Origin: Raillietiella orientalis
Lineage: Eukaryota
DNA: 64,000 nucleotides
Assembly: GCA_036172245.1 (NCBI GenBank)
Contig: JAYWIR010000033.1
Coordinates: 372,001 to 436,000, forward strand
Direction: 5' to 3'
Notes under the pieces: generated by a model
What the model saw: only the letters and a program-made list of their open reading frames with translations
Database searches by the model: none
Told to the model about the DNA's origin: nothing
In this document: piece after piece, positions 18,494-59,150 of the stretch
Position numbering within the stretch: position 1 is the first letter of the stretch
Layout: the number at the start of each line of letters is the position of its first letter
Program-made: the position numbers and the translations under genes

Positions 18494-18501
18494 ACACACC
18501 A

Positions 18502-19384
18502 ACGCGTGGACTCTCCTCCTGCCGGCGACTGCGCGTAATCTGTTGCAACGTCAACGGGTTGCGCGACGACGACAAGAGGAGAGAAGTGGCCGCCAGCCTG
18601 CGGGACTTCGACCTGGCGCTTCTGCAGGAGACGCACGTTCTCCACGCAGGGGAGGCCCAGGAAATCGAACGGATCGCAGGCGGGCGGCTCGTATACCAAA
18701 ACGGGAGAGACCACACCCGCGTTGTGGCTTTCATGCTGAAGCCAGCCGTCGTTAATGCGCTGCGCGACGTGCACTTCGACGGGGAAGGTCAAATCGGGCA
18801 GCTTGTTGCCAAGTGGTCCGACGCGATCGACCTCGTCGTGACCAACGTGTACGCGCCCGGCACGAGCCACAGGCGCGGGGAACGCACTGCGTTCTTCGAA
18901 GGCCTGCGGCGAGATTGGCTGGCCGAAGCACACATGCGAAAGGCGCACCTCATTGCCGGGGACTTTAACGTCCGCCTGCTGGCAGGTGCGCTTGACATTC
19001 GCGCACAGCTGGTCAACGAGATGTGCGCTGCCATGCACGCGCGCAACTTGTTGGCCGGTGACGCCGGGACGGAGACGAGGATCGACCACATGTTCCTCGA
19101 CAACCACCTGTGTTCGCGGGTGGGAAATCGAGGGGCAGTGCCATCCGAACTTTCCGACCATCCCCGGCTGGCGCTAGAAATACACCCGCGCGGTAGAGGT
19201 CCACCCTCCACAGCGTGGCGTTTGCCAGGGGACTGGTTGCGCCTCGCAGGAGCAGCGCAACATCTTCGCTCGTTCCTGCAAGGCTTCCATCTGCAGTCGC
19301 TCGCGAACTGGGACGACTTGAAGAGCTCAGTCCGCGAGTTCTGCGACCAGTTTCCCCTGAACCGTCTCCCTCCAGGTTTCGGCG
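18502..19384 (+). pseudogene. X2 ORF2 endonuclease domain, cut by the Y1 insertion
   Basis: CNVNG, LQETH, NVYAP, AGDFN, RIDH, SDH in one open frame that ends at GFG. Confidence 0.88.
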
Positions 19385-22300
19385 TTATCACCCGGGTACG
19401 CCCGGGGCGTTTATTTATAAAAAACCCTACAATTGCGGTACCTGGCCCCGCTCACCGCCTTTTGCACGGGACCTACCGGGACGCAGGGACGCAGCCCGGC
19501 GTGGCACTCCCCGGCAGCGAAAAGGGATAAGCAAAAACAGAAATAAAAACAAAAAGGCAAACAAACAAGTGAGGTTGGGGGGCAGGGAAGGGATCACTGT
19601 TCGCTGAGAGGGAGGCCCATCCGTTGAAGAAAGCCCTCGAGGTCCATCCGTAGATTCCCCAGTTGGGGCCATCCAACAGCTCTCCGCAGGAAGCGTTGGG
19701 CATATGGGATGACATCCCTCGCGTGTTGACCCACTCCTTCCTTGTTGGTGTCGCTCCATGCCTCCACGATGCCTCTGACGCAGCACAAGGCTGCAAAGGC
19801 AGCGGCTGGCTGCAGGGCGTCCTTCACGAAGAGGAGCCGAAGAACGTCTCTAGGGGAACTGCCCGTTGGGACACCGAGGTTCGTCCCAAACCGTTCCCAA
19901 AGGGGACGAAGGGCAGCACAGTCCACAATAAGATGGGAGAGCGATTCCCGCTCTCCGCACCTGACACACGCAGGATCCACAACTCCTCTTGTCCAGTGAG
20001 AGCGGCGTGCGTTGCAGGGTAAACCCCAATGCAACAACAGCAACGCCGACTCTTTCCACTTAAGGGGCAGGATCCTGGATTCCTGAAGAAGCGGGGGCCA
20101 CTTCAGCACATCCATAGGGATGGCCAGCAGCTCGCCCCATCTTCTTAGTCCTCGCGGCTGGACGCTCGGGGTCGTGGCGTCGGCCAGTTCTGCTGTCCAG
20201 CCGCTGATCAATTTTTCGCGTCCCTCGATGCAGCAGGAGACTTGCCACCTTGGCGTCCAGCTGCTGTGAAGTGCCCTTCTGAGGAAGGGCAGCGCCGTAG
20301 CTAGGAAGGTCGTGTCTGCCCACGTGCATCTTGCTGGACTCTCCAGTAGATTCCGCAGCGTGCAGCGGGCGTAGGGGCTGCATCGGCGACGATTCCACGT
20401 CTCGTGGCTTCTCTGGTTAACCACTGCCCACGTTCCAATATTCTCCTCCAGCCTGGCGGGGGAGTTGGCGAAGCAGAAAACCATCCAGCTGTTCTCCTTG
20501 GCCAATGTTGCCATGCGCCCGAACAGTAGGCCGCATCTTCGCATCTTCCGGCCACGGCTGAGAAGAAAAGACGCGAGTCCATCGCACCGGGACACACGGC
20601 TGGCCAGGAGGCGGGCCGGAGTGCACCAAGGGGTGCTCCACATCTTCGCTGCGATGGCGAGGGTTCGCCACCGCAGCTGCTTCTCCACGCGCTCCAGCGT
20701 CAGGAGGCCAAGACCGCCGTCCCGACGCGGAGCGCACAAGTCCTTCAGTGGGACTCGGGGCCTCCCCTTGCCCCAAAGGGCGATACGGAGGAGATCCTTC
20801 GTCCTCTTCTTCGATTTCACGGTGGGGGGGCAAACAAAAAGCAAAGGACGGAGGATGGGGGCCGCTAAGGCGTTCCAAACCGCGGCCCATTCCGGCAAGT
20901 GAAACTGGCCTCCCAGGAACGGGCCGATCGCCGTCTCGACTTTTTGGAGGCAGCTGGACCACGCTTCCGCAGGGGAGTAGTCCCCCAACGGCACACCAAG
21001 GTACTTGAAGCACCTCGCCGTGGGGATCATTAGACGGACCCAGTCCTGCTGCCCTGCCCACGCCGCACCTATTGGCACAACCGACGACTTCGCCCTGTTA
21101 ACCTCCAGTCCGGTCCCGCGGCTGAGCAGATCGAAGAAGTCTCCGACCGCCTTCGCCGGGGTGGACATTGGCAACAAGAGCAGAAGATCGTCGGCGTACG
21201 CTGCTACGGCGGGCGTGCCAGGGCACCAGCTCGGCAAGGGGGCCAAAGTCACCCTGTACGCTCTCAGCACCAACTCGAAGTAGGTGCTAAAGAGCAGGGG
21301 GCTGAGGCTATCGCCCTACCTTATGCCTCGCCGCACCGGCACGCCATACACCTTCTGTCCACTGGAACAGACGGTAATCATCGCATTCCGCCAGCAAGAG
21401 CGCAGGTAGGAAATCAGGGAGGGTGGGTAGCCCATGCGACCCAGGAGCTCCAAGAGGAGTTCCTGGTCTACACAGTCGAACGCCTTGTGGAGATCGACTG
21501 CGAGCGCTAGGGCACCCTACCCTGCCCGGGGGTTTCTTCCCAGCCCGGCTGGCGGCCCCAATGTGGGGTTCCCGACTTTCCCTATCCCTTTCTTTTCTCT
21601 TCTCTGCAGGTGCAATCATGTGCTTGCGAAGAAGAGGTTGCCATCCGTACTTCGACCGGGAACAGCATAAGTCTGCTCCTGGCTAATTACGGATTCTGCC
21701 ACCTGCCCCAGACGCGAAGCCCATAGCCCTGCTATCAACTTGGCGTCCGTATTTCCGATTGTGATCGGTCGCCAGTTCTTTAAATTCCTGAGGTCTCCTT
21801 CTATCGGAAGGCACCTCACTCTGGCTGACCGAAACGAGACGGGAACATCGCCTTCGTCTCGGATCAGCCTGATCTACTTAAGAAGCAGGGGTGCCAGCTC
21901 TTCCGCGAAGCTCTGAAAGAAGTCCGCGGGCAAGCCGTCTTCCCCTGAAGTTTTACGACTCTTGAGCCTTTTGATACCAACGAGAATTTCGTCGGTTGTA
22001 AAAGGCTCGTCGAGGCTTTCCATCTCCTCCTCCCCTATTGCCGGGGTGCCATCCGGAAGCAAGCGTCGAGAGGCGTTTCGATCCGGGGGCTCCCTGGCGT
22101 GAAGGGAGGAATAAAAACTCCGCACGAGATGCCGTACCGACGAAGGGGACGAACATTCCCGGCCCTGGTCATCCAGCAAGCTGGCCGACCCGGATTGCCA
22201 GGCTTGGCGTTCAGCCCCGGCGCGGTACTCGGCCAGGCGACGGACATTAGGGGTTCTCTGGTATTTACGAGCCTGTAAATAGGCCCGATGGTTGCGAGGA

Positions 22301-22720
22301 CCCTCGCCGAATCCGGAAGGCAGGCGGTCCAGGGGGAACTGCTCGCAGAAATCCCGGACCGATTCCTTAAAAAGGTCTCAGTCCTGGATATTCCGGAGCG
22401 TGACGCCTCTCAGGTATTCGCGAAGGTGTTCCTTCGCACCTGAGAGTGGCGTCCAGTCCCCCAGCAGATGCCAATCCCTGTATGGCGGTCCGCGAGGCCG
22501 CATCTCGAAAATTAGCCGGGAATGGTCCGACAACGTCGACACAACCCTCCCCCGTTTGCCGACGCGTGAACACAGGTCAGCGTCCAGGAAGACGTGGTCG
22601 ATGCTGCGGACCATTCCTTTTTCACCCGATAACAAGTAGCGCACACGGATGACTGCGCACAACTCGCTCATCGCGTTCACTTGTGTTTCCGGCTCACCTG
22701 TTAGCAGGCGGAGATTGAAA
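19385..22720 (-). mobile_element. Family Y element Y1, 3' part
   Basis: ORF 19594-21273 (YADD, KYLG, finger), RT pieces up to 22179 and EN C-terminal half 22378-22720. Hairpin at 19385-19415. Confidence 0.9.
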
Positions 22721-24272
22721 TTTATCACCCGGTCACGCCGGGGCGTTTATAATTAATAATAAACTGGTCAGGGACAATGTCCCCAACCAACAGAACGACA
22801 GAGAACATAGAAAAATTGCCGGCACGCAGGCCTGGTAAACAGACCGCTCGCAGCGTGGGGGGAATGAGGGGAAACAAACAAAAATCAAAAACTGGAGGGA
22901 AGGGAAAAGGGTTTTTGGTTAGGCTCCGTACTCACGGGGATTTAAACGATGAGCACCTCAAATGTTCCGGAGCCTATGGGGACGCGGGTGTAAAAAGAAA
23001 ATACAAAATTAGTTTATGGAGGGTAGGGCAATGATCACCGGGTTGGCCGCTGCTGAGGGTGTGTAAACCGGCGGTGTATTGCGGCGAGATTCCTTTTTGT
23101 CTCCTATGTCAAATGAGGCCATCTAGCGGATGATCCCTTGTAGAAGGATGCTTTGCTGATTAACTCTTGGTGCTGTCCGTTGATTACCAACGCCTGGCGG
23201 ACGGAAACTATCGCGCGTATGCAACCGATGGTTGCAATCCTTGCGCTTAGTGACAGCCCGCTCAGCGTGAAGAATCGTCGCAGCAAGTCTCTTGCGGTGT
23301 CCACGGGATGCATTAGTGCTGTTGCCAACCTACGCCACAGTCCTTGTAGGACACCGCAGTCCAGAAGTAGGTGCGGAATCGACTCCGTCGATCCGCACCG
23401 AACGCAGTTCGCGGACGCAAGTCCCCCGGAGTCACGATGCCAACGCTCGTTGCACTGAAAACCCCAGTGAACGAAAAGCAGCACGGCTTGTTTCCAAGCA
23501 AGGGGGAGCAGCGAACTGTCAATACACTGTGGAGGGACTACAAGTTCTTCGGGGGTGACAGCAAGTTCTTCTGCCCACCGGAGGAGTCCCTTTGCAGTAA
23601 CACGAGGAGTGGCGGCGTCCGCCAACTCACTCGTCTTCCAGGCGCCAAGGATTTTGGTTTTTCCCGCTATCGTGCCGGAGACCTCCCACCTTGCCGGTTG
23701 GTAACTGTCGTTTCTTGCCCTGAGGGCAGACAGCGCTTCGGCAAGAGGCGTGGCAGCCAGGGTAGAAAACTTCACCTCGTCCTGCAGTACTTCTTCCAAG
23801 GATCGTGGAAAAAATTGACGCAGGGGGCGAAGATCTTCAGAGCGTATTCCTTGGAACGCCGCCCAGGATTCAACAGACTCCTGCCGCCAAGCTTCAAAGT
23901 TCATTGGGCGGCAGGAGATCCACGAGTGAGCTTCCAGAAGTGCGGTCAACTGCCGCAATGGAAACCCGAAACCCCGCTTCCTGTATTGAGTGCCCAACAA
24001 AAGCGAGAGAAATCCTCCGTTGCCGGCGCATCTCCGCAGGAGAATGCGGGCTGGCACACACAGGGGGGATGTCCATAGCTGGGCACACAGTGCCAGCAGT
24101 CGGAACTGCACCTGCAGTCCGATTCGCTCCATTGTCAAGATACCCAAACCAGCATCCCGACGCGGAGCTAACAAATCTTTAAGGCGGATCCTGGATCTCG
24201 CCGGACCCCAGAGAGCGTTCCTGAGCAGGCGTTTAGCCCGCTGTTTTGCCGCATAGGGGGGTCCTGATAGCG
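22721..24272 (-). mobile_element. 5'-truncated W-related element V inserted in the Y1 endonuclease, 11-bp TSD
   Basis: ORF2 C-terminus 23104-24260 and hairpin at 22721-22752. GGAGATTGAAA at 22710-22720 and 24273-24283. Confidence 0.88.
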
Positions 24273-26705
24273 GGAGATTGAAAACTCCCGCTATCAGGTG
24301 AGCCTTTCGCACATTGGTATCCGCCAGTCAGACGCGCTTCAGGGTTTCCAGCAGCCTGGTGCGGTCGCGGTAACCCTGTTTGCCGCTGGGGCCATACACG
24401 TTTGTGACGATTAGGTCGATCGAGTCGGACCAGCTGAGAATCAGCTGACCGATCCGACCGTCGTCATCAAACCGCATGGCCTTTACGGCAGCGTCGATGG
24501 CCGGCTCCACGAAGAACGCGACCCCGCAGGTGTTGCGGAGGCCGCATCGCCAATACAGCCGACCCCCCGCGATCGTCTCGATTTCCTGGACGTCTGCCGC
24601 GGTGATCACGTGGATCTCCTGCAGCAGCGCCAGGTCGAGCTCACGCAGGGTGTCGGCTGTATCTCGCCTGTTGCCGTCGTCGCGCAGCCCGTTGACGTTC
24701 CAACAGGCCGCGCGAATCCGACGGCGACTGGCGAGCCCAGGTGTTAGTCCAGGGAAAACGGCGATGCGGCGACTGCCACCTGCTAAGGCGGGACGCTAGG
24801 TGGAGGGGGAGGAAGGACAGGTACTGAAGGCACCTTTGCCTCCTCCTCCATCGGTGCCGGCGCGTCGGCCGGATCACCCGCAGGTGGAGTCGCGTCTACC
24901 TGTTCGCCTTCCTCCATGGGTTCGGGCTGCTCAGGTTTTGCGACTGCAGGGAGGACTTCACGCTCCTGCTCTCCCTCCTCCATGGGGGTGGCCGACTCAA
25001 CGGCTTCCGGGCGTGGGTATTCCCCCTCCGGGATTCCCACGCTGCCGCTTCCTTCCGGTTTCTCCTCCTCGCTGGTGGAGGGGAGGCGCCTCTTGGGTTT
25101 CTGGGACTTGCGTCCCGAATTCCTGGGGGTGCCTCCGAGGAGGAGGATCCGCTTCCGGCCCCCAGGTCGCACTCACCTGCAGGGGCCTTCTTCGTCGGAG
25201 CCGACCTGCGTACGCCCTTGCGCGACGGGGTTTCGCGTTCGGCGAGCGTTGCTGCGAGCTCCTCCGCCGCTTTCTCGAAGGCCGCGTCTTCGCCAGCGGC
25301 GACCGTTGCCGCGGGCTGCTCCGCGACCTTATCGAGCGCGGCGTCATCGTTGACGGCGAACGTTGCCGCGGGCTCCTCCGCGACTTTATCGAACGCGGCG
25401 TCCTGGCTGTCGGTGCGCGAGTCTCGCGTCTCACCCTCTAAACGTAGATTGGGCTCGTCCACGCGAGTATTCATCGCGTCCGCATCAGCTGTTCCGCGAA
25501 CATTGCCGCGGGCGGACTCAGCAGGAACGGCTAAGCGTTCCAGTGCCACCGAGCATTCGCGGAGTTTTTTTTTTGAAAGCGGCGCGGCTTTTTTCTTGTT
25601 GCCGGCAGTTTTCTGCTCCGAATTTTCTTCTATCATCACTTTCTTTTTTTTCTCTTTTCTGGCCTGAACCAGCTGCCAACCCTCCTCCATTCCCGCGTCC
25701 ACGGGAGCTATTTCCTCCGACGTCTGTGCGGGAGGAAGGGAGGCTGGCAGTTGGGAACGGCCATTTTCGCGAGCTGGTCTTTCCACCAGCTTTCCACGTT
25801 TTCCCTGCGCCTTTTTGGCGGCAGGGGGCACCGGGGTGGGGCGCTTAGGGCACACGCGCCGAACGTGACCCTTTTCGCCGCATAGGTGGCACACAATGTT
25901 CCAGCACCTTTTTCGTAGATGCCCTACTGCAATGCAGTAGCCACAAAATTGGCGTTTCCCCACGTACCAGAGGTCCATTGCTTCTTGGCAGACCTACAGC
26001 TTGTGGGGAAGCGCAACACCCTCTTTTACTGTGATACGCGCCGCAGCTTGACCTCCGAAAAGGCTATTGTAGCCTTCGAAAATCGTGGACTTCGGCCACA
26101 ACGCGTGCACTTCTCCGTGCTTTTGTAGCTGTTCTAGAACCGCTGACCTTGTCATGCGACTGGAGATCCCAGTGAGATGGACCACCACCGAGCGGTCCAT
26201 CGTTATCGGCAAGATCTTCCGACCATCAATGATCACCGGGTCGGTGATCTGGTGTAGGGCCAAGGTGATATCCTTGCGTACCACCTCGACCCGCTGTCCG
26301 TCGCTGAGGACGCAGATGCCCTCGAGATCTTTTTCAAAAATATTGGCGTTTTGCAGCGCCTTCGTAAAGGCGCGTGCAGTTCGCCCATCGAAAAGGTTGC
26401 CTACCTTGTAGACTAGCGAGGGTTTATACCCCGCTTTCTTGTAGGCTTCCATCTCGGCCATGGCTTCCACGCTAGGCGCGGCCACCATGGCGCTCCATGA
26501 CCTCGGCGTCGCCGAAGACGATTCCGGGGCGGATGCCCCTGATCCAGTAGGCTGTGGGGACGAACAAGCCTTCATCACGCCTACTTCCATCGCGGTGTCC
26601 TCTGGCAACGCTGCCTTCGGACACCGACGATGTGCACGCACAAATCACTCAAGAAGAAAAAACACTTGCTTTGCCACGCAGGCGGAGCGCAGGAAAAGCA
26701 CGTCC
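24273..26705 (-). mobile_element. Family Y element Y1, 5' part (5' UTR, ORF1, EN N-terminal half)
   Basis: GGACGTGCTTTT starting at 26705. ORF1 pieces 25994-26641, 24896-25978 (two CCHC) and 24783-25172. EN 24273-24744. Confidence 0.9.
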
Positions 26706-29699
26706 GCTCTCCACAGCGGGGATTAAGCGAAGCGCAGAGGAACGACCGGGCATACCAACACGCCCTCTTTACTCTAGGACTCCCGACGTTCGACGCCTGG
26801 CGGAGTATAAAGCTGGGGCTGAGCGACAGACTTGGCAATCCGGGTCGCCCAGCCTGCTGGACGCCCAAAGCCAAGAATGCTCAGCTCCGGCGAGAATAAA
26901 CCGCATCCTGCGGGACTATTACTCCTCCTTGTACGCGCGTAGAACAACAGAGAACGCCGTGGCGCAGAGCTTGCTGCCGCAATGCGCTTTCGCGCTGCAA
27001 GAGGAGCAGGCACATGAACTCGCGGAGCCTTTCTCGATGGCGGAGATCGTGTCCGCCATCGGAAAGCTCCGAAAGAGGTAAGCACCAGGGAAAGACGGAC
27101 TGCCCGCAAAGTTCTACCAAGGCTTCGTGGCGGAGCTGGCCCCCCTGGTGCATCGGCTATGCATGCTGATCCGAGAACAAGGGGACGTCCCCAAATCGTT
27201 CCGGTCAGCTAGAGTACGTCTCCTACCGAAAGGAAAAGACCATCGCAACGTAGGCACCTGGCGTCCCATCACAGTAGTGAATGCGGATGCGAAGTTGCTT
27301 GCCAAGCTTTGGGCTGAGCGACTGGGACAAGTGGCGGAATACGTGGTCAGTCCGGAGCAGACATACGCTGTTCCCGGACGAAGCATGGAGGCCAACCTGT
27401 TCCTCGCCAGTACTTGGTGGCAGTTGCAACAAAGCGTAGACCACGGAGGTCAAGAGAATCCTGGATTCTCCTCTGACCAGGGAGGGGACGCCCTTCATGG
27501 AACAGCCGCGCCCGATGCCTTTGAGGTCGCAGTCGATCTGCGTGAAGCGTTCGATTGCGTCGACCAGGAACTGCTTCTGGAGCTCCTGGAACGTTTGGGA
27601 TTCCCGGCCGTCTTCCGGGCTTACCTGCGCTCCTGCTGGCGCTTCGCTCTAATAAACATCTCTTTTAGCGGCCGGCACGTGTACGGCGTGCCGGTTCGCC
27701 GTATCATAAGGCAGGGTGACAGTCTGAGAACCATGCTCTTCAGCATCTACTTCGAGCTGGTGCTGAGGGCATACAGGGAGACTCTGGCAACCATGCAAAG
27801 CTCGTGTCCCGGCACGCCTGCCGTGTCGGCCTACGCCGACCACCTTCTGCTCCTGCTCCCCGGGTCCAACCCGGCGTCGGCGCTCGAAGATTTCTTTGAG
27901 TTGCTGCGCCGCGGGACGGGCCTCGAGGTGAACAGAGATAAATCTACAATCCTTCCAACATCAAAACAACTATTCAACCATACGGCGTGGGCCGGACAGC
28001 CGGACTGGATCCGCATAAGGATCTTTACGGGCAGGTGCTTGAAGTACCTTGGCGTTCCGTTGGGGGACTTCTGCGTTGCAGAAGCCTGGTACGACCGTCT
28101 CCAAACGGTGGAGTTGGCGATGGGCCCGTTCCGGAACGGCAAGTTTTACTTGCAGGAGCGGGCCGCGGTGTGGAACGCGTTCGCGGCCCCCCTCCTTCGC
28201 CCCTTACTTTTTGTTTGCCCCGCCCCTCCCATCATACAGAGACGGACCAAAGCCCTCTTGAGGACTGCCCTTTGGGGCACAGCGAGGTCGCGAGTCCGAT
28301 TGAAAGACTTGTGCGCTCCACGCAGGGATGGTGGCTTGGGCCTGCTTACGTTGGAGCGCATCCAACTACAGACAACACTTCGGAAGTTAGCCCTTGCGGC
28401 TAGCTTATGGATGACGCCATGGTGCGATCCGGCACGGCTCCTTGCCAGAAGAGCGACCGGCTGCGAAGGATTGTCCTCGATCCTCCTGGCCTACCAGCGC
28501 AACCTCTTCAACTGTGGCCCCGATTTGCGCCAGATGGTCTCCCTGATGAGGAAGAATACATGAATCTCCAGCATCCCCGCGAACTGCACTGCCTGGATTC
28601 AGGAGTCAGCTTCCGCGTGGGCTAAGATCAACGTCACGAGCGAGGCGGAATACAACTGCCTACGACGAGGACCGTACGCTCGACAGCCGCTGCAGGAGAT
28701 TATTAACACGCCCCGGAAGTTCCTGTGAACTTCTTTCAGCCCCCTTGCCCACGTTCTGTCCTCCCTGAAAAACACTAGGAGCAGCAACGAGCTGGCATCG
28801 TGGGAAATGTCCTGCCTCGTCCGAGGCAGGAAAAAACCTTTAAAGGCGTGGACGACTCGAGAGCTCACGGACGCTGCCACCCCGAGCGTCCCGCCTCACG
28901 GACTTGCGCGCTGGGGAGAGCTGCTCGCAATACCTCCGAAGGAAGTGAAGTGGCCCCCAGCGTGTTGGGATTGCGGCACACTTCCGTTGAAGTTGGAGGA
29001 GACGGCGTTGCTATTTCTGCACTGGGGACTGTTAAGCAGAGCACGCCTGTCTCACTGGACACTGGGAGATGTGGATGCCCGCTGTGTCGAGTGCGGAGAA
29101 AGGAAAACCTTCCCGCATCTCACCCTCGAGTGTCTCGCCCTGGATGGACTGTGGAGTAGAATCGCCCCAATCCTCCATCTTCCAGTAGGCGACCCTAAGG
29201 AAATTTACCGTCGCCTCTTTCTGCGTGACGGCCTGCGCCCCGCTGCGTCTCTAGCAGTCCTCTGCTGCGTGCGCGGCATTGTGCAAAGGTGGCACGCCAG
29301 AAGAAGAGGCTTAAGATGCAGAGACGTCATCCACTGGACGACGATCTTTTTAGAGACGGCGACAAGGTGGCGTCTACCTTTCACAATAAAAACTGAACTT
29401 GACTGCATCCTCAACAGGATGCGGAGGACCGATCCAGGCGCCCAGTGATCCCTTCTCTGCCCCCCTTTCCCCATATAACTGTTTTCCTCCTCGTTATCTC
29501 TCTTTTTTTTTATTTTTGTTCTAGTTTTCCCTCCCCATGCGCCTCGGGAATGGACCTAACCGGTCTATGCACCGGCAACAGACACGTCAACCAAGGTGGG
29601 AAAACCAAGTGTTTCCCACAATTAACTTTTGAAAGCCTTTATTATCTAATTTTTGTAAAAAATTAGAATAATAAATGCCCCGGCATATCCGGGTGGCAA
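26706..29699 (+). mobile_element. Family X element, 3' part (linker, RT, 3' end); presumed continuation of X2
   Basis: Resumes at the GFG-equivalent position. ORFs 27127-28563 and 28807-29448. AATAAA-hairpin at 29670-29695. Confidence 0.85.
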
Positions 29700-30200: not shown

Positions 30201-30228
30201 AGCAGCTCAAGACAACTTAAGACAGTCC

Positions 30229-35566: not shown

Positions 35567-35612
35567 CACTGTGCGAGCGCACTAGATCGAACGAATCTCT
35601 GTATGGCGGCTA
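35567..35612 (+). mobile_element. About 45-bp remnant of a family A endonuclease (..IERIS..RL) between two W elements
   Basis: AGATCGAACGAATCTC matches A1 near 9333-9350 and the reverse complement of 59120-59150. Confidence 0.65.
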
Positions 35613-40800: not shown

Positions 40801-40808
40801 GAGAGGAT

Positions 40809-47268: not shown

Positions 47269-50191
47269 ATGCCACCCGGATACGCCGGTACGATTATTAA
47301 AAACATTTCTACAGTCAATACAGAACGTGGTACAAGGCCCCACAGGAGGCCACGCTATACCGGTACTGCCGGGACACCGGGAAGCAACCCGGTGTGGCTC
47401 TCTTCTTCAGTGGAGGGGGATGAAGGAGAAAACAAAAACCAAATAAAAATAGAAAAACAAACAACAAAAGGAGTTTGGAGGGCCGGAAAGGGATCACAGA
47501 CAACTACTGGGAGGGCCCATCCTTCGCAGGATGCCTTCGAGTTCCATTTTTATTTTTCCGAGATGGGGCCATCGGGTGGCTCTCTGCAGGAAGCGAACAG
47601 CATACTCGATGACGTCCCTCACGATGCAGTCTTCATCTTCGGCATCACTCCAGGTCTCCACGATATCACAAAAGCAGCAAAGTGCTGCCAGGGCTGCGGC
47701 TGGACTGAGGGCGTCCCGCACGAAGACAAGACTGTAGACACATCCAACATTGCCACCATCCGGTATCCGGAGGGCCGTTTTAAGACGATCCCAAAGTATC
47801 CGGACGGCAGGGCATTCAACTACGAGGTGGGGGAGCAGCTCCCGCTCCCCACACCTAGCACACGCAGGATTAACTCTTTCACGCCTCCAGTGGAAGCGAA
47901 GCGCGTTGCAGGGTAGACCTTAATGCAGCCACAAAAGCGTTGATTCTTGCCACTTTAGGGAAAGAATACTGGATCCAAGGAGAACCAGAGGTGACTTCAG
48001 GTCAACCAATCGAATGCTGAGCTGCTCGCCCCATTTTCTTAATCCACGCGGCTGGACACTAGGGGTCGTCTCATCTGTCAACTCTCCAATGGTCCGGCCG
48101 CTAATCATCTTCTCTCTGCCTGCAATGCTGCAGCAGACTTGCACCTTGGCTTCCGGCTTTCGTAAGGCGCCCTTTCTAGTAAGGGCATCGTCGTAAAAAG
48201 GGGTGCCCCTTCCGCCCACGTGCAACTCGGTGGAAATTCAAGAATTCCACGCAAAGTCCGGCATGCGTAAAAGCCGAGTCGCAGGCAGTTCATTGAGTCT
48301 TCGCACCTATAATTCTGCTTGGCCCAGGTGCCAGCAGTCTCCTCCAGCCAAGCGGAGGAGTTGGCAAGGCCACAAACCATCCAGTCGTTCTCCTTCCCCA
48401 GGGCTGCAATTCGGCCGAGCAGTAGACCGCATCTGCGAATCTTCTGGCCAGGACACAGAAGGAACGATGCGAGTCCTTCGTAGCGGGGCACACGCCTGGC
48501 CAGGAGGGGGGCCGGAATGCACCAAGCGGTGTTCCACATCGTCGCTGCGATGGCAAGGGTTCGCCATCGTTATTGGATTTCCACGCTCTCCAGCATCAGG
48601 ACGCTGAGACCGCTGTCCTCACGCGGAGCGCACAAGTGCCTCAGAGGGACTCAAGGCCTCCCCTTGTCCCGAAGGGCTATGCGGAGGAGGTCCTCTGACC
48701 ACTTCTTTAATTCCACGGGGGCGGGGAAACCAAAAAGCAAGGGGCGGAGGATCAAGGCCGCGAAGGCGTTCCAGACCGCGGCCCGTTCTGGCAAGTTCAA
48801 CTTGCCTTTCAGGAACGGGCCGATCGCCGTCTCGACTGTTTGGAGGCAGCTCGACCACGATTCCGCAGGGTAGAAGTCCTTCAGCGGCACATCAAAGTAC
48901 TTAATGCACCTCAGCGTGTGGATATCCAGACGGAACCAGTCCGGCTGCCCTGTCCACTTTGCTCCAGCTGGCATTAACGACGACTACGCCCTATCAACCT
49001 TTAATCCGGCCCCACGGCCTATAAGGTCGAAGAAATCTCCTACCGACTTTGCCGGGGTGGACATAGGTCAGAGGAGCAGAAGATCGTTGACATACGCAGT
49101 TACGGCGGCCGTGCAGGGGCACGAGCTCGGCAAGGGGTCCAAAGTCACCCTGTGCGCTCTCAGCACCGAATCAGCGTAGGTGATAGAGAGCAGGGGGCTA
49201 AGGCTGTCGCCCTGCCTTATGCCCCGCAGCACCGGCATTCCATACACCTTTTGACCACTGAAAGTAATCGAGATTACCGCGCTTCGCCAGCAAGAGCGCA
49301 TGTAGGTAACCAAGGAGGGGGGGAAGCCCATGCGACCCAGGAGCTTTAAGAGGAGTTCCTGGTCAACACAGTCGAATGCCTTATGGAGGTCGACTGCGAT
49401 CGCTAAGGCCCCCTTTCCCGCATGAGGGTCCCCACCCTGTCCCACTGGCGGCCCCAAAGTAGGGTTGCAAATTTTCCCTTTCCCTTTTTTCTTACTCCGC
49501 TGCGCGTGCATCCATGTGCTCGCGAAGAAGAGGTTGTCCTCCATACTTGGCCCGGGAACAGCGTAATTCTGCTCCGGGCTAATTATGGAATTGAACACCT
49601 CCCCCAATCGCAACGCCCACAGCCCGGCAATCAACTTGGCGTCCGTGTTCACAATCATGATCGGACGCCAGTTGTTCAAATTCCTAAGGTCTCCCCCTTT
49701 CGGAAGGAGCCTCACACTGGCTGACCTATACGAGGCGGGAACATCGCCTTCGTCTCGGATCAGCCTGATCAACTTAAGCAGCAGGGGTGCCAGCTGCTCC
49801 GCAAAGCTCTGAAAGAATTCCGCGGGCAAGCCGTCTTCCCCTGGAGCTTTACGCCTCTTGAGCCTTTTGATACCGGCGAGAATTTCGCCGGTGGTAAAAG
49901 GCTCGTCGAGGCTTTCCATCTCCTCCTCCCCTAATGCCAAGGCGCCATCCGGAAGCAAGCGCCGAGAGGCGTTCCGATCCGGGGGCTCCCTGGCGTAAAG
50001 GGAGGAATAAAAACTCCGCACGAGATGCCGTACCGACGCCGAAGAAGAACATTCCCGGCCCTGGTCGTCCAGCAAGCTGGCTGACCCGGATTGCCAGGCT
50101 TGACGTTCGGTCCCGGCTCGGTACTCTGCCAGGCGACGGACATTGGAGGTCCTCGCTTAACAACGGGCATACAATTACGCTCTTTCGTTAC
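47269..50191 (-). mobile_element. Family Y element Y2, 3' part
   Basis: RT ORF 49068-50075 resembles Y1 (LDDQGRECSS). C-terminus LRRMGPPSSCL. Hairpin at 47269-47300. Confidence 0.88.
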
Positions 50192-50195
50192 AAAA

Positions 50196-52847
50196 GGACG
50201 TGTTTTTTCTTTGCCATCGAGTGAGTCGACAGAAAGCGTTTTTTTTTTCTTTGTGTGTGTTCGTGTGGAACATCGCTGGTGTCCGATGGCAGCGATGCCT
50301 GAGGACACCACGATGAAGGTAGGTGTGAGGGAGGCTTGCCCACCCCCACAGCCTACAGAATGAGGGGCGTCCGCCCCGGAATCGCCCTCGCCGCCCAAGG
50401 CGAGGAGCTGGAGCGCCATGGTGGCCGCGCCGAGCGCGGAAACCATGGCCGAGATGGCGGCCTACCGGGCAGCTGGGTACAAGCCCAGCTTGGTCTACCA
50501 GGTAGGCAATCTCTGTGACGGGCGAACTGCACGCGCTTTTTCGAAGGCACTGCAGAACGCCAACGTGTTAGAGAAGGATCTTGACGGTCTATCCGTGCAC
50601 AGCGAGGTACAGCGCGTCGAGGTTGTCGGCAAGGACATCACCTTGGCGCAAAGCTTGATTACTACCCCGCTGAACGTGGACGGACTCAAGATCCTGCCAG
50701 TAAAGATGGACCGCTCCGTAGTGGTCCATCTGAGAGGCATCCCCATCCGCATGAAGCGGTCTCCGGTTGGTGATCAGCTAAGGAAATATGGCGAAGTTCA
50801 CGCGCTATCGCCTCAGGCTACAAGCTTCGATAATAACGATAGCCTCTTTAAAGTGCAGGTTGCCGCGCGCGTGACGGTGAACAAGGAGAGTAAGCTTTCC
50901 CACAAACTAGAGGTCAGTGACGAAGTAGTAGACCTCTGGTACGTGGGGAAACCCCACTTTTGTGGCTACTGCAATGCAGTAGGACACTTGCGCAAGCGGT
51001 GCCCGAACATTGTGTGCCACTTATGCGGGAAAAAGGGCCACGTGCGCCGCGTATGCCCTAAACGCCTCACTCTGGTGCCGCCTGCTGCAAAGAAGGCGCA
51101 TGCAAACCGAACAAAATTGGTCGAAAGACCAAAAAGTGATACTGGCCGGAAGCAGCCGCAAGCCCTTATTCCACCGACACATGCTTCGGAAGGAAAACCT
51201 TCCGAAGACGCGAGAGTCCATGACGGCTGGCAGCTGGTTAAGACGAGGAAGGAGAAAAACGTGTCCCCCGCGGAACCCGCGAAAGGGGTCAAAAAGACAG
51301 CCGGCAAGGCGAAGAAACCTGGGCCCCGCTGCAGGACCATATGGGAATGTACGGTGGCATTGGAACGCATAGCCGTTTCTTAGACTGCCACCCGGGACGA
51401 CGAGCCTTCCCTCGCCGTTTCGGTCGCGCCGGAGGTTCGCGACGGCGAACCCTTTGTTTACAGATAAGGACGAGCTGCGCGATATAGCGACGGTCGAAGT
51501 CGAGGACGCCGCGTTCGCGCAGGCAGCGAAGGGGCTCGCGGCCACGCTGGCCGAGCGTGAGAACCGCTCGCGCAAGGCCGTGCGAAGGCCGGCTTTCGCG
51601 AAAAAGGCCCCCACGGTTCAGTTGGACCTGGGATCCGAAAGTGCATCCTTCTCCTCGCAGGCATTCCCCAGAAAGTCGGGACGCAAGTCCCAGAAATCCA
51701 GGAGGCGCATCCCCTCCATCAGCGAGGAGTAGAAGCAGGAAGTTAGCGGTAGCGTGGGAATCCCGGAGGTGCAACTCCCACGCGCGGAAGCCGTCGAGCC
51801 GGCCACCCCCATGGAGGAAAGTGAGCAGGGGCGCGAAGCCCTCACTGCAGTCGCCGAGCCTGAACAGCCCGCCCCTATGGAGAAGGGACAAAAGGTAGGA
51901 GCGACCCAACCTGAGGGTGACCCGCTCGACGCGCGGTACCCATGGAGGAGGGGGACCAGGTGCACGTAGCGCCTGACCCTCCTCCTCCACCCAGCGTCCC
52001 GCCCCAACATGTGGCGAACACCGCATCGTTATCTTTCCAGTAGTAACACCTGGGCTCGCCAGTCCCCGTCAGATTCGCGCCGCCTATTGGAACGTCAACG
52101 GGTTGCGCGACGACGGTAACAGGCGAGATATGGCCGACACCATGAGTGAGCTCGACCTGGCCCTGCTGCAGGAGATCCACGTGATCACCGCGCTAGACGC
52201 CCAGGACATTGAGACGATCGCGGAGGGTCGGTTGTATTGGCGATGCGGCCTTCGCAACACCTGCGGGGCCGCGCTCTTCGTGAAGCCGGCGATCGAAGCA
52301 GCCGTAAAGGGCGTGCGTTTGATGACGACGGTCGGGTCGGTGAGCTGATTCTCAGCTGGTCCGACTCGATGGAATTGATCGGCACAAACGTGTACGTCCC
52401 AAGCGGAAAAGGGGGATACAGCGACCATACCATGTTGCTGGAAACCCTGAAGCGCGACTGGCTGGCGGACACGAATGTGCGCAATGCTCACCAGATAGCG
52501 GGGGATTTCAATCTCCGTCTGCTAACAGGTGAGCCAGAAACACAAGAACGCACGGCGAACGAGTAGTGCGCTGCCATGAGTGCGCGCAACTTTTTCGCGG
52601 GTGAGAGGGGAATGGACCGCAGCATCGACCACGTCTTCCTCGACGCTGACCTGTGTTCACGGGTCGGCAAACAGAGGAGGGTTGCGTCGACGTTGTCGGA
52701 ACATTCCCGGCTAATTTTCGAGATGCGGCCCCGCGAAAAAGGACCGCCATCCAGGGATTGGCGTCTGCCGGAGGACTGGACGCGACTCTCAGGTGCGAAG
52801 GAACACCTTCGCGAATACCTGAGAGGCGTCACGCTCTGGAATCTTCA
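50196..52847 (+). mobile_element. Family Y element Y3, 5' part (ORF1 and endonuclease)
   Basis: GGACGTGTTTTTT start, ORF 50418-51383 with two CCHC, EN pieces 52103-52845. Confidence 0.88.
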
Positions 52848-55760
52848 TTGCAACCCGGGTGCGCCGCGTCGTTTATTATAGCGAATAAACCTATACAATC
52901 TGTGACTGGACCAGCAGTCCAGCCACGCCCTGGAAAGATATATCTTGCCGGGCTACCGGTACGCAGACCGGCGCGGTCGACGTCGGAAGCAGAGGGGAGG
53001 GGGAACGAAACAAAAAGAAAACAAAAAATAAACAAAAATCAGGGAGGGAGCGGGAAGGGATCACAGTCTGCTGGGAGGGTCCGTCATCCTCTATAGGATG
53101 CCGGCAAGCTGTTTCTGTGTGTGTGGTTAGAGATGGGGCAATCGCGTCGCCATCCTGAGGAAACGGGCGGCATACACGTTGGCATCCCTGTCGCTGGATC
53201 CTCCCGTCGCTTTGCTCCATGCCACGACGATCCCGCGTAGGCAGCACAGGGCTGCAAGCGAGGCCGCTGAAGGCAGGGCGTCACAAACGAAGAGGGGGCG
53301 CAAAGCCTCTCTAGGGTTGCCTTTGGGGATCCCCAGAGCTGCGGCAAAGCGTTCCCACAAGAAACAGAGGGCAACACAATTCACTAACAGGTGGATGAGG
53401 TATTCCCTCTCCCCGCACATGACACAATTAGGGTTGACATCCCCCCGCGTCCAGTGATGTCGGCGGGAGCTGCAAGGAAGCCCCCAATGGAACACCAGCA
53501 GTGCCGACTGTTGCCACTTCATGGGGAGGGTGCGCGAGTCCATGAGCACCGAAGGCCACTCGAGATGTTCCTCTGGAACATCCAGTAGCTCTCCCCAGCG
53601 CAACAGTCCATTTGGGGTGGTCCTCGGGGTCGCAGCGTTGGTGAGCTGACCCGTTCTCCAATCCCCGATCTTTTTGGCCCTGCTGGCGATCTTGACAATA
53701 ACCTCCCATTGTGCCCGGACGTCGCTGCCCAGATGTTGCCGTAGGGTAAACAGTACCGCAGCAAGGGAGGTACTTTGTGCTCACGCACTCCTTCAGGGAT
53801 TCTCGATGATTTCTCGGAGCGTGCGGTGGACATGCGGCCCGAACAGAGCTATTCGCTCGTGTTGCGGGCTCTGCTCCAGAATCATCGCCCACGTGCGGAC
53901 GGTTTCCTGGAACCAGGCAGGACCGTTCGCGGGGCGTACGAGGATCCGCGCCGAGTTGTTCTTCACGAGCTTAGCCGCCCTCCGAAGTTGAAGTCCGCAG
54001 TGGCAGATGGGGCTTCGGAGTGCAAAGTAGGACGAGAGTCCTGCATTGTTGGTGGCCCGCTCGACGAGGAGACGTGCAGGGAAGCACCAAGGGGTGCACC
54101 AATTTTCTGCCATCAAGGCAACAACTCGGAACTGGAGCTGTAGCTCCAGCCGCTACAACGTCAGGAGGCCCAGACCACCATCACGACGAGGAGCGCACAA
54201 GTCCGAAAGACGGACTCGGGGCCTCCCTCTGCCCCAAAGGGCGATAATCAGGAGGTCCTTTGTCCTCTTTTTTGACTCCGCTGAGGGGGAACAAACAAAA
54301 AGCAAGGGAAGAAGGAGGGAAGCCGAAAACGCGTTTTACGCCGCGGCCCGTTCCTGGAGGTAGAACCTGCGGTCCTGGAACGGGCCGATTGCCGCCCGAG
54401 TTTTCTGAAGGACGCCGGACCACGCTTCCGCAGGGGAGTAGTCCCCCAACGGCACACCAAGGTACTCGAAGTACCTCACCGTGGGGATCACCAAACGGAT
54501 CCAGTCCTGCTGCCCTGCCCACGCCTCTCCGACTGGCATTACGGACGACTTCGCCCTGTTCACCGTCAGTCCTGTTCCCCGACTCAGCAGGTCGAAGAAC
54601 TCCTCGACCGCCGCAGCCGGGGTGGACATAAGCAGCAGCAGAAGGTCGTCCGAGTACGTCGAAACCGCAGGCGTACCGGGACAATCGCACGGCAGGTGCG
54701 CCAGAGTCTCCCTGTACGCTCTCAGCACCAATTCGAAATAGGCGCTGAAGAGCAAGGGGCTGAGGCTGTCTCCCTGCCGTATGCCGCGTCGCACCGGTAC
54801 GCCGTACACGGTGGATCAACAAAAAAAACATTAATAAGCGCGTCGCGCCAGCTGGAGCGCAGGTAGGCTAGCAAAGAGGCCGGGAAGCCCAAGCGTTCCA
54901 GAAGCTCCAAAAGGAGATTCTGGTCGACGCAATCGAATGCTTTAAGCAAATCGACTGCGACCGTGAGGGCTCCTCTCCCCTCCCGACCATCCCGTCCCCC
55001 ACCGACGGACGCACCGGAATTCCGGTTGCTTATTATGCTCCTTCCTTGTTGGAGCTCTAACCATGTGGAAGCGTGGAATAGGTTCGCCTCCATACTTCGC
55101 CCGGGAACAGCATATGTCTGTTCCGAGCTGATGAAGATGTTGGCGACTCGTAACAGGCCCTCTGCCCACAGCTTGTCTAGCAACTTGGCGTCCGCATTCA
55201 CTATTGTGATGGGACGCCAGCTGTTCATGCTCCTAAGGTCTCCTTTCTTAGGGAGGAGCCGCACCTTTGCTGAACGAAACGTGGTGAGAACGTCATCTGT
55301 TTCGCGGATCAGCAAGGTGAGATGATGTACCAGGGGAGTAAGCTCTGCCGCGAAAGTTTGATAAAACTTCGCAGGCAGGCCGTCCTCCCCTGGAGCCTTT
55401 CGCCTCTTGAGCTTTCCGATGGCCGAGATGATCTCGCAAATCGTGAACGGCTCGTCAAGGTTCCTTTTCTCCTCCTTCCCGATTGCTGGAGCACCTTCCG
55501 GAAGCAGGAGTCGTTAGACAGCCTGCTCCGAAGGCGCCTTGGCGTACAGGGAGGAGTAAAATTTCACTATCCCGCGTTTCTGAGCGGGAACCGAGTGCTC
55601 CCGGTCCTGGTCGTCCAGCAAGCTTGCCGACCCGGATTGCCAGGCTTGCCTCTCGGCTCCCGCTTGATACTCTGCTAACCTGCGCATGTCGGGGGTTCTC
55701 GCGTAACGTCGGGCCTTAAGATAGCACCTCTCGTTACGCGACCCATTCCCGAATCCCTCT
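52848..55760 (-). mobile_element. Family A element A3, 3' part
   Basis: RT pieces 54722-55315 and 54336-54809 resemble A1. Finger ORF 53127-53603. Hairpin at 52848-52877. Confidence 0.86.
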
Positions 55761-55770
55761 CCTCGAAAGC

Positions 55771-58405
55771 GGACGTGTTTTTCCGGCGCTCCGCGAACGA
55801 GCAGCGGAAAGCGTTTTTTTTTGGTTCAGTGTGTGCTTTTTCACATCGTTGGTGTCCGATGGCATCGCTGCCAGAGGTCACCACGATGGAGGTAGGCGTG
55901 AGGGAGGCTAGCCTCCGCCCACGACCTACAGTATCAGGGGCATTCGCCCCGGAATCGCCCTGTTCGCCCAAGACGAGGAGCTGGAGCGCCATGGTCGCCG
56001 CGCCGAGCGCGGAAACCTTGGCTGAGCAGGCGGCTCACTGTGCCTCCGGATATAAACCATCCCTGGTGTATAAGGTAGGAAACCTGTTCGACGGTCGCAC
56101 CGCGCGTGCCTTTGGCAAGGCACTACAGGAATTCTCCGTGCGTGAGGAGGATCTTAACGGCCTCGCCGTACTCAGCAAGGGGCAACGCGTGGAGGTCGTC
56201 TGCAAAGACGTAGCCCTAGCGCAGCGCCTCATCAACACCCCGCTGAATGTGGCTGGCCGAAGGATCCTACCCGTTAGCATGGACCGCACCGTAGTGGTCC
56301 ATCTAACGTGGATCTCGAACCGCATGACGCGCTATGCGGTGAACGCGAAATTGAAGAAATACGGAGATGTGCACGCGCTGTGGCCAAAGCCAACCCTTTT
56401 TGACGGCTATAACAGCCTCTTTGGTGGCCAGGCAGCAGCGCGTGTCACTATGAACAAGGGTGCTGGGTTACCCCACAAACTGGAGGTCGGGAAGGAGCCC
56501 GTCGACCTTTGGTACGTAGGGAAACCCCGCTATTGTAGCTACTGCGATGCAGTAGGGCATGTGCGCAGGCGGTGCCCGAATATCGAGTACCACTTGTGCG
56601 GGGAAAAGGGACACGTCCGTCGTGTGTGCCCAAAACGCCCCACCCCGGTGCCACCTGCTGCCAAAAAGGCACAGCCTAAAAAACGAAAAAAGATCGAAAG
56701 AGCTTATCGCGAAACTAGCCGGCCTTAGCCGCCATCTCCTGTTCCTTCCACCCAGGCGTCGGAGGAAAAACCCGCTGAAGACGCGGGAGAGGAAGAAGGA
56801 TGGAAGCTGGTAAAGGCCAGAAAAGAGAAAAAAGTTCCCCCCGTGGAACCCACGAGAGCGAAGAAAGAAAAGAGCGCAAGAACGAATTAACCCGGTCCGC
56901 GCTCGAAAACTCTTTGCGAGTGCACGGTGTCACTCGAACGGATTGCCGTCCCCGAGGCTGCCACCCGGGGCGACGAGCCTCCCCTCGCCGTTTCCGCCGC
57001 GCCCGAAGTTCGCGACGACGAACCCTCTGTTTGCACAGAGGGTGAGCAGCGCGAAGCGCGCGCCTAAAGCGAGGACGCCGCGTTCGCGCAGGCGACGGAG
57101 GAGCTCCCGGCCACGCTGGCCGAGCGTGAGAAACCCTCACGCAAGGCCGTGCGAAGGCCGGCTCCGCCGAAGAAGGCCCCCGCAGGTGAGTGCGATCTCG
57201 GGGCCGCAAGTGCATCCTCCTCGTCGGAGGCACCCCCCGGTAGACGGAACGCAAGTCCCGATAGCCGAGGAGGCGCCTCCGCTCCACGAGCGAAGAGGAG
57301 AAGCAGGAAGCCGACGGCAGCGTGGGAATCCCGGAGGGGGAAATCCCACGCGCGGAAGTCGTCGAGCAGGCCACCCCCATGGAGGAGGGAGAGCAGGGAG
57401 GCGAAGTCCTTCTTGCCAGCGCGGACCCTGTACAGCCCACACTTATGGAGGAGGGCCAACAGGTAGGCGCGACCCCTCCTGAGTGTGAACCGCCCGACGC
57501 GCCGTCACCGATGGAAGAGGGTAACCAGGTGCTAGAGGCACCTGTCCCTCCTCCTCCACCTAGCGTCCCGCCCCAACAGGTGGCGGACGCCGCACAGCCG
57601 ATTTCCCAGGAATAACACCTGGGCTCGCCTGGCGCCGTCGAATCCGCGTGGCCAGTTGGAACTTCAACGGGCTGCGCGACGACGGCAACAGACGAGATAT
57701 GGCCGACACGCTGCGTGACTTCGACCTGGCCCTGCTGCAGGAGATCCACGTGATCATCTCGGCAGACGTCCAGGAGATCAAGGCGATCGCGGGGGGTCGA
57801 CTGTATTGGCGATGCGGCGCCTGCGACACCTGCGGGATCGCGTTCTTCGTCCAGCCGGCCATCGACGCTGCCGCGAAGGGCGTACGCTTTGATGACGATG
57901 GTCGGGTCGGTCAGCTGATTCTCAGCTGGTCCGATAAGCTGATTCTCAGCTGGCACACCTGATAGCTGGAGACTTCAATCTCCGTCTGCTGTCAGGTGAG
58001 CCCGAAGCACAAGAACGCACTGCGAACGAGTTGTGCGCTGCCATGCGCACGCGCAACTTGTTGGCAGACGCGGAGGGAATGGACCGCAGCATCGACCACT
58101 TCTTCCTAAATGTCGACCTGTGCTCGCGGGTCGGCAAACGGGGAAAAGTTGCGTCGACGCTGTCGGACCATACGAGGATCATCGCCGAGGTTTGTCCGCG
58201 CGACAAAGGACCCCCGTCCAGGGCGTGGCGGCTGCCTGGGGCCTGGACGCGGCTCTCAGGTGCGAAAGAACACCTTCGCAAATTCCTGAGAGGCGTCACC
58301 CTTCGCAGTCTCCAAGACTGGGACCTCTTCAAGGCCTCGGTCCGCGAGTTCTGCGAGGAGTTTCCCCTGCACTGCCTGTACGCCCCGGGCGTACCCGGGT
58401 GACAA
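55771..58405 (+). mobile_element. Family Y element Y4, both termini present but RT and 3' UTR deleted
   Basis: GGACGTGTTTTT start, ORF1 pieces, EN to FPLHCL at 58378, then directly CGCCCCGGGCGTACCCGGGTGA, identical to the Y1 terminus. Confidence 0.85.
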
Positions 58406-59150
58406 CCCCAAATCCTGCAGGTAGGCGATGCAGGGGGAACTGGTCGCAGAACTCCTGGACCGACCGCTTGAAGCGGTCCCAGTCCTGAAGTGTCTGCATC
58501 CTGAAGCTCCGAATAAACGCGCGGAGGTGCTCCGCCGCGTCGGGAAACTTCAGCCAGTCCCCTGGCAGACGACACGCTGACGAGGGGGGGCCCTTGTCGC
58601 GCGGACGCACTTCGAACATGATCCGACCATGGTCCGACAGCTCGGATGGTACCTTGCCGCGCCTGCCCACCCGAGAACATAGGTGCTGATCAAGGTACAC
58701 GTGATCGATGCTGCTTTCCATGGCCGTGTCCCCGGCCAACAAGTTGCGCGTGTTCATTTCTGCACACAACTTGTTGACGCGGTCGTTCAGTGTATCAAGC
58801 GCACCTGAAAGCAAGCGCAGGTTGAAATCACCTGCGATCAGGTGCGCTTTGCGAACTCCTGCATCGGTCAGCCAATCGCGTCTCACGGCAAGGTAGAATT
58901 CCCTTCTTGCCTTCGCCGTCAACGCGTTATTTCCGCTAGGAGCGTATAGGTTGGTGACGACCAGGTCGATAGAGTCGGACCAGCTGAGAGTCAGCTGAAC
59001 GACGCGACCTGCGTCATCGAACCGAATGTCCTTTATTGCGGTCTCGATGGCGGGCCGAAGCGAGAAGGCGACACCGCTTGCTTTCGCGGTGCCGGAACGC
59101 CACAACAGCCGCCCACCCGAGATCCGTTCGATCTCCCGGGCTCGTACAGT
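58406..59150 (-). mobile_element. Family A endonuclease (continuation of A3)
   Basis: ORF 58329-59306: EIERISGG..NLYAP..AGDFN..IDH..SDH..RLPAGFG. Confidence 0.88.

Follow-up and report, generated by a model that had tools for sequence, protein, structure and literature searches.

A family of L1-like retrotransposons in Raillietiella orientalis with a probable insertion site in the coding sequence of sibling elements

The stretch of DNA analysed here, 64,000 nucleotides (nt) of the Raillietiella orientalis assembly GCA_036172245.1 (contig JAYWIR010000033.1, positions 372,001 to 436,000 of the forward strand), is made up of densely nested L1-like non-LTR retrotransposons (LTR, long terminal repeat). 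We refer to the whole stretch as the window and give all positions in its own coordinates. One of the families in it, family Y, is probably a site-specific L1-like non-LTR retrotransposon that targets a position within the coding sequence of sibling families of long interspersed nuclear elements (LINEs), where it would insert through target-primed reverse transcription (TPRT). All three recognisable Y 3' ends in the window (19385, 47269 and 58405) lie antisense to a host element and directly after the host sequence GGNTTYGGNG, which encodes Gly-Phe-Gly (GFG) in the linker between the endonuclease (EN) and reverse transcriptase (RT) domains of the host. These are residues 321-323 in the coordinates of the second open reading frame (ORF2) of element W, the least damaged copy, which also served as tblastn query across the window. 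An earlier note on this DNA had proposed a targeted insertion at the GFG site that separates EN from RT, and this proposal is supported by junctions at the same nucleotide, independent events, empty sites, target-site duplications (TSDs) and the EN/RT split in the host.

Family Y junctions at the Gly-Phe-Gly codons

In the three hosts X2, Z and A3 the coding sequence breaks one nucleotide into codon 324 (at 19384, 47268 and, on the minus strand, 58406), and each break is followed by the reverse complement of a complete Y terminus, the tails being TGATAA, TGGCAT and TGACAA. The junction in X2 (19372-19384, plus strand) reads CCAGGTTTCGGCG, that is Pro-Gly-Phe-Gly and one further nucleotide, followed by TTATCACCCGGGTACGCCCGGGGCG; the one in Z (47256-47268, plus strand) reads CCAGGTTTCGGCG followed by ATGCCACCCGGATACGCCGG, and the one in A3 (58406-58418, minus strand) GCAGGATTTGGGG followed by TTGTCACCCGGGTACGCCCGGGGCGT. 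All three are exactly as the earlier note had read them.

The guest in X2 is Y1, a full-length element on the minus strand (19385-26705) with GGACGTGC at its 5' end (26705) and ...CCCGGGTGATAA at its 3' end (19385). It lies antisense between the left part of X2 (16795-19384, plus strand), which consists of the 5' end GGACGCAATTG, ORF1 and EN up to GFG, and the right part (26706-29699, plus strand), which consists of 14 extra nt, a degenerate TSD, the linker, RT, zf-RVT and the 3' hairpin end at 29699. Host Z (45822-47268, plus strand; C-terminus of ORF1 and EN, ending with CCAGGTTTCGGCG at 47256-47268) carries Y2 in antisense (47269-50195, minus strand; RT, C-terminus and 3' untranslated region (3'UTR), with the 3' end at 47269). 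The 5' side of Y2 is truncated by a further Y copy, Y4, ~5 nt beyond the GFG-equivalent position of Y2. The third guest, Y3 (55771-58405, plus strand), is antisense in A3 and contains the Y 5' end, ORF1 and EN as far as FPLHCL (58379), and then the terminal 26 nt (58380-58405). On one side of it stands the EN part of A3 (58406-59159, minus strand; sense end GCAGGATTTGGGG at 58418-58406), and on the other the RT part and 3' end of A3 (52848-55770, minus strand), with the TSD copy GGGATTCGGGA separated by 13 extra nt from the 5' end of Y3. Y3 and the adjoining inverted EN of A3 form a near-palindrome around the hairpin. The insertion splits EN from RT in the host copy.

A 20-nt Y terminus, searched with up to 3 mismatches, has three matches in the window (0.00 expected), one of which (22722) comes from another family; the diverged terminus of Y2 was recognised by reading and not by the terminus search. 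BLAST with the 3'UTRs of Y1 and Y2 revealed no further Y 3' ends in the window, and the Y 3' ends located at the site are therefore three out of three. The sequence GGNTTYGGNG itself is found 8 times on the two strands, at chance level (8.3), and its occurrences outside GFG codons are unoccupied. The chance of three antisense landings on such sites is ~(8/128000)^3, of the order of 1e-13.

The Y 5' ends were located by the motif GGACGTG[CT]TTT. Both ends are visible in two insertions, Y1 in X2 and Y3 in A3, and in both of these the host flank continues on either side of the guest. The RT part of X2 restarts at 26706 with 14 nt of unexplained origin, after which GGATTAAGCG (26720-26729) matches GGTTTCGGCG at 7/10 positions, and the linker beyond it aligns to that of W. 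In A3, 13 extra nt are followed by GGGATTCGGGA (reverse complement of 55747-55757), which matches AGGATTTGGGG on the opposite side at ~9/11 positions; the uninterrupted relative A1 has a single copy, and a BLAST overlap at 10052-10062 likewise gives a TSD of ~11 nt. The insertions are thus flanked by degenerate TSDs of ~10-11 nt that repeat the GFG codons. Short TSDs containing the target are a signature of TPRT. The earlier observation that the Y 5' ends at 26705 and 55771 abut the GFG region agrees with this, the degenerate repeat of the GFG codons being found after the 13-14 extra nt. A third 5' end, at 50196, had been placed about 20 nt from GFG; it actually lies ~5 nt past (downstream of) the position in Y2 that is equivalent to the nick. 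It is the intact 5' end of Y4 (50196-52847, plus strand; Y 5' end, ORF1 and EN to ~residue 296, where the 3' end of A3 interrupts it), and the 3' side of this insertion has been lost. The Y4 5' end lies in the GFG region of Y2, and family Y thus hits Y as well.

Stretches of ~10-14 nt that are purine-rich (e.g., ...CGAARGC) are found between the TSD and GGACGTG at 26706-26719, 55758-55770, 12986-12998 and 208-218. They could be either untemplated 5' additions or the result of a variable true 5' end.

Empty paralogous GFG sites are present in W, A1, Y1, D1 and H1, as well as in the H1 duplicate H2. The uninterrupted family X element W (~42000 to 45174, minus strand) reads CCGGGCTTCGGTG at its empty site (44205-44217, minus strand). 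In A1 (8592-12973), a family A element uninterrupted at GFG, the site reads AAGGGTTTTGGGA (10046-10058, plus strand), and Y1's own site, also empty, reads TCCGGATTCGGCG (22305-22317, minus strand). The occupied sites read CAGG(T/A)TT(C/T)GG(C/G)G (n=3), and the empty ones differ from them at the A-equivalent of CAGG or just before the nick, which at this number may be a hint. Sequence from an independent run, X1 (13% of sampled words; over 9001-29000, 565 short contigs, of which 27 are at least 99% alike), includes among the contigs listed one of depth 2 that joins 26722 to 19394 with 16 letters between them, and so places a Y 5' end and a Y 3' end on either side of a short GFG-like spacer. 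As independent data, this join gives weak support to a Y insertion at the GFG site.

Insertion mechanism and alternative explanations

We propose that the Y ORF2 protein, through its APE-type endonuclease, would nick the host sense strand directly 3' of GGNTTYGGNG, one nucleotide past the Gly-Phe-Gly codons (in X2 after 19384). The free 3'-OH would then prime reverse transcription of the Y RNA from its exact, poly(A)-less 3' end, for which the CCCGG/CCGGG hairpin and the 6-nt tail presumably form the RNA handle recognised by the RT. A cut in the second strand ~10-11 nt upstream would generate the short duplication that repeats the GFG codons beside the Y 5' end, leaving the guest antisense to the host and the host EN parted from its RT. 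The duplicated copy would keep both the site and its original downstream flank, such that it could be hit again and nested and head-to-tail arrays could result. We infer from the logic of TPRT which strand would be nicked first, while the specificity would be set by the endonuclease and the hairpin is a putative handle for the RT.

Several observations weigh against this mechanism. Only three Y 3' junctions are available, all of them in one 64-kb window, and one of the guests, Y3, is an odd, internally deleted copy, in which EN breaks off 5 codons short of the element's own GFG and continues straight into the last 26 nt. The TSDs are degenerate, and 13-14 unexplained nt separate them from the canonical Y 5' end. 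Three of the 8 copies of GGNTTYGGNG are occupied, and among the 5 that are at GFG codons the sites of W and Y1 are empty, so the 10-mer alone does not predict occupancy. Some nested ends lie elsewhere: the 3' end of A3 (52848), 27 codons upstream of GFG in Y4, is an exception to precise homing in an event whose far side does not show simple nesting, and a BM-like element (22722-24272, minus strand), 5'-truncated and with a hairpin terminus, sits in sense orientation in the middle of the Y1 EN. For the latter insertion, a 12-nt overlap is seen in the uninterrupted relative Y4 and an empty form in an X1 contig (joint 22721 to 24285). As for the hairpin, at least six of the 7 aligned termini retain the 5-bp stem CCCGG/CCGGG, three pairs of which are present in all 7, but a compensatory change was found in none of the 5 pairs, and covariation thus neither supports nor refutes the structure.

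Homing might also be real without being set by the preference of the endonuclease, if a read-through Y RNA anneals to a nicked or breathing target, or if recombination-like repair takes place at a fragile conserved motif. For R1, annealing of a read-through transcript to the target has reportedly been proposed. In the window, every Y donor has the reverse complement of a GFG site behind it, so its read-through RNA would have 3' homology to new targets. By reading, the tail of the Y RNA shows no microhomology to the primer strand, so something else would position the RNA, and the motif copies outside the GFG codons have stayed unoccupied. However, the junction is at the same nucleotide despite a difference of ~35% in the upstream host EN, and the 3' ends are exact, with no target sequence carried over. 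Moreover, the sibling family X is equally precise at an unrelated sequence (see below), which fits a protein-encoded specificity that differs among families. We consider an explanation of this kind unlikely.

A different question is whether the junctions represent more than one event. In trees built from EN, RT and the C-terminal region, the elements fall into four families: Y (Y1, Y2, Y3 and Y4), A (A1 and A3), X (X2, its duplicate X2d, C1, W and Z) and D/B (D1, H1, B1, B2, M and the copy nested in Y1 at 22722-24272). The hosts had been described as members of different families. This holds for A3, which represents a second family, and does not hold for X2 and Z, which are subfamilies of one family (78%). 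EN identity among the hosts is 78% for X2 and Z, 66% for X2 and A3 and 65% for Z and A3, and that of A3 to A1 is 72-82%. Among the guests, Y1 and Y3 are 81% identical (EN) and Y1 and Y2 80-83% (ORF2/RT). The EN of W is 87-89% identical to that of Z, and X2 is 76-78% identical to both, giving the tree ((Z,W),X2) with a support of 1.0 for Z and W; W is uninterrupted and Z is interrupted.

A single ancestral composite of host and Y, segmentally duplicated and then diverged, would reduce the junctions to one shared insertion event. Consistent with such a history, 18486-22258 and 46370-50154 are collinear across the junction (77.8%), the divergence of X2/Z is like that of Y1/Y2 (78.4% vs 80.3% in ORF2), and duplications at the DNA level occur nearby (e.g., 27006-29979 / 30233-33208, 91.6%). 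Nevertheless, the uninterrupted W is the sister of the interrupted Z, with X2 outside, and for that reason X2 with Y1 and Z with Y2 do not derive from one duplicated composite: an insertion of a retroelement is not precisely excisable, W could not descend from an ancestor of X2 and Z that was already interrupted, and the insertions were therefore separate. In addition, A3 is in the other family, the guests are closer than the hosts (81% for Y1 and Y3 vs 66% for X2 and A3), and the guests differ in their extent, as do the flanks. This makes a common origin by duplication very improbable, and the Y insertions at the GFG site are, judged from these trees and identities, independent events. The earlier note had likewise held that one duplicated event does not explain the three junctions, and had named congruent guest and host trees with equal divergence as the result that would speak against targeting; the trees obtained here do not have that form.

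Least credible of all are assembly chimeras between repeat copies, since chimeras form within common sequence whereas the joins here are at complete termini (hairpin and tail, or GGACGTG), the target is duplicated with the host continuing on the far side, and the three junctions are diverged in sequence, even if the region is nearly all repeats of 70-94% identity and the independent run consists of short contigs, among which, as listed, none is shown bridging 19384.

Two further readings were considered and rejected. A Y terminus that copies or mimics the host linker was suggested by 10 identical nt, CGGGCGTACC, that the Y terminus has in common with the W linker, a match attributable to chance: in local alignments of 6 termini with 7 linkers (300 shuffles each), 2 of the 42 pairs reached p ~0.03-0.05. 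Twin priming does not apply, the junctions being tail to host body and not 5' to 5'.

Possible sites of the sibling families

The clearest second case of a family that would have its own precise site is family X. In D/B hosts, the 3' ends of C1 (5508) and X2 (29699) share a single nucleotide position, in antisense orientation and directly after ...GCAGCCGAAGT, ~57 codons downstream of GFG. C1 (4123-5508, plus strand) is inserted in B1/D1 and X2 (16795-29699, plus strand) in B2/H1; the former is 5'-truncated with a perfect 12-nt TSD, TGCAGCCGAAGT, and the latter is full length with a TSD of ~7-8 nt. The guests are 93.9% identical and the hosts 88.4%, and C1 and X2 represent two independent events at one D/B-family nucleotide. 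A third copy of the X 3' end (32929) is part of a tandem duplication of DNA. This duplication (27006-29979 / 30233-33208) comprises X2 from RT to the 3' end together with an inverted EN fragment, and not every repeat in the window therefore stems from retrotransposition.

In family A, a single element has been split by a composite of B1, C1 and D1 into E219 (219-1539) and A1 (8592-12973); a TSD of 11 or 14 nt would put its ORF1 back in phase. The element is arranged head to tail with the next A element (12999-14219), and between the two are 12 nt of host (CAGGGCGTTCGA, KAFD motif, from a minus-strand Y-like RT) and 13 extra nt. This arrangement suggests the re-use of a site that was regenerated by the TSD. 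The 25 nt at 12974-12998 had also been considered as a decayed GFG site, a reading rejected because these nt are homologous both to 194-218 and to the part of a Y-like RT around KAFD.

The 5' ends of two D/N-type elements that are 77% identical (~35575, minus strand, and ~59160, plus strand) abut two A-like hosts at one and the same EN position, just past QETH, and this position may be a further family-specific site. The 3' ends of B1, B2 and M (1540-2074, 14220-14777 and 35781-36309) have no hairpin terminus and end in ...TTATTGTCC. About 18 nt (GTTCGGAACGGGAGGGGG-like; 2 matches) are common to these ends and their flanks, and to the flanks of B1 and M; they could mark a site of the B/M family, but may belong to the 3' end of the B/M elements rather than to the target. 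B1 and B2 are 93.8% identical, and their hosts, E219 and the element at 12999, 77.2%; these values could reflect independent insertions or gene conversion.

Taken together, the sites could form a closed web, a reading that we put forward tentatively and with some doubt. Each sibling family would have a nucleotide of its own to which it homes within another family's coding sequence, and the regeneration of the site through the TSD would result in a nested tandem array that builds and maintains itself. Within such a web, the target of family Y would be the GFG linker of X, A and Y, that of family X the nucleotide after ...GCAGCCGAAGT some 57 codons downstream in D/B, that of family A the RT KAFD motif (directly after CAAGGCKTTCGA) in a Y-like copy, and that of D/N the position just after the EN QETH motif in A-like copies. 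If this is correct, LINE clusters of the Zepp type, which may be centromeric, could be built by this rule, and endonuclease specificities would be diversifying against the conserved coding motifs of competitors.

The arrangement points to a group of closely related APE endonucleases that differ in specificity. The rule by which a new copy finds an old one is visible here at nucleotide resolution, as a conserved coding motif of a sibling that is entered in antisense and regenerated by the TSD, and the self-assembly of nested LINE clusters becomes directly testable. By landing only in other retrotransposons, elements of this type would spare the host genome and so provide a natural case of "safe" retrotransposons.

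Related systems and element architecture

Site-specific LINEs and Zepp-like nested clusters are known precedents; new in the present case is a target that consists of a coding motif of sibling LINEs. Known site-specific LINEs target rRNA, snRNA and 5S genes, telomeric repeats or microsatellites, and Tx1L targets a DNA transposon. Like R1, TRAS/SART and the Tx1 group, family Y shows repeated insertion at one nucleotide of a multicopy target, with an exact 3' junction and a short duplication, and several features by which site-specific LINEs are recognised are found here: the same nucleotide and orientation in independent insertions, empty paralogous sites, and continuity of the host with a TSD. 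In the available part of the literature on R1Bm, the APE-fold endonuclease is thought to set the specificity (PMC1919474), and "target-specific insertion" within the L1 clade is mentioned for the Tx group in the portion of PMC3747384 that was consulted. The difference from these systems lies in the target, which is a protein-coding motif of sibling LINEs, the Y family included, and in the several related families that seem to use different sites in one another. In the literature searched we found no description of a LINE homing to a coding motif in other LINEs.

The nested LINE clusters formed by Zepp and ZeppL are candidate algal centromeres. Like Zepp of Chlorella and Coccomyxa and ZeppL-1 of Chlamydomonas, the elements in the window are L1-type LINEs in clusters of nested copies, and insertion into existing copies has produced nested and tandem clusters here as well. 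The accessible text of Blanc et al. (2012; PMC3446292) describes one GC-rich nested cluster per chromosome, and the window is likewise a GC-rich nest (~58%) of nested and head-to-tail copies. Zepp and L1-1_CR end in poly(A), according to the excerpt available of PMC3747384 (Table 3), whereas in the elements of the window a hairpin and a 6-nt tail form the terminus, with no poly(A). The likeness to Zepp is one of cluster form. For clusters of the Zepp type, no nucleotide-precise site, antisense rule or family-specific sites are described in the sections available of PMC3446292, PMC9940879, bioRxiv 10.1101/2025.03.28.645958 and PMC10088271, and the primary Zepp papers may say more.

A terminal hairpin and a short tail in place of poly(A) are also characteristic of stringent-type LINEs (eel and zebrafish L2-type), where the RT recognises the 3' stem-loop (PMC4176376, in the part available). 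Those elements differ from the present ones in that they belong to another clade and are not site-specific, and recognition of the hairpin by the RT is putative for the elements in the window.

In self-comparison, the 64 kb proved to be almost entirely mutually similar repeats (70-94% identical) in both orientations. Six-frame ORFs contain the domains Exo_endo_phos (APE endonuclease), RVT_1, zf-RVT and a CCHC zinc knuckle, and in many copies PF03372 is followed by PF00078 in the expected order, concordant with the collinear tblastn map. The W ORF2 query identified ~20 ORF2 segments, and ORF1 queries identified 13 ORF1 segments. The elements have a common layout of 5' GGACGTG[CT]TTT, ORF1 (in which the CCHC knuckle is located), EN, linker, RT, zf-RVT and a 3'UTR of ~0.7 kb, and their common 3' end has the form AATAAA[CT]GCCCCGG-loop-CCGGGTG-NNAA, without poly(A). 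Each of the nine full termini listed has the hairpin and a tail of the ...TG(A/G)NAA type with no A-run, Y3 retaining only the last 26 nt; the poly(A) or simple-repeat 3' tail that is usual for the L1 superfamily is thus absent. The hosts and Y, which share the 3' hairpin and the domain plan, belong to one superfamily.

Among solved structures, the best-scoring one was human L1 ORF2p (E 2e-21; R2 1e-3), and zf-RVT is present. The nearest database proteins to an EN-linker query are 26% identical, and an X2 RT query is 64% identical to one unnamed JGI protein. Among the distant relatives P0001-P0005 the GFG linker motif shows no conservation, and the target is accordingly specific to this group of elements. 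Comparison with a protein atlas returned generic EN/RT clusters only, uninformative on taxonomy, and a metagenome scan for ATAAAYGCCCCGG-N3-7-CCGGGTG returned 18 loci, none of which (0/18) had blastn or tblastx similarity to the window and which we regard as chance matches. At the end of the window (62035-63996, minus strand) lies a distant element with EN and RT, of 23-31% protein identity to W, which represents a different LINE lineage.

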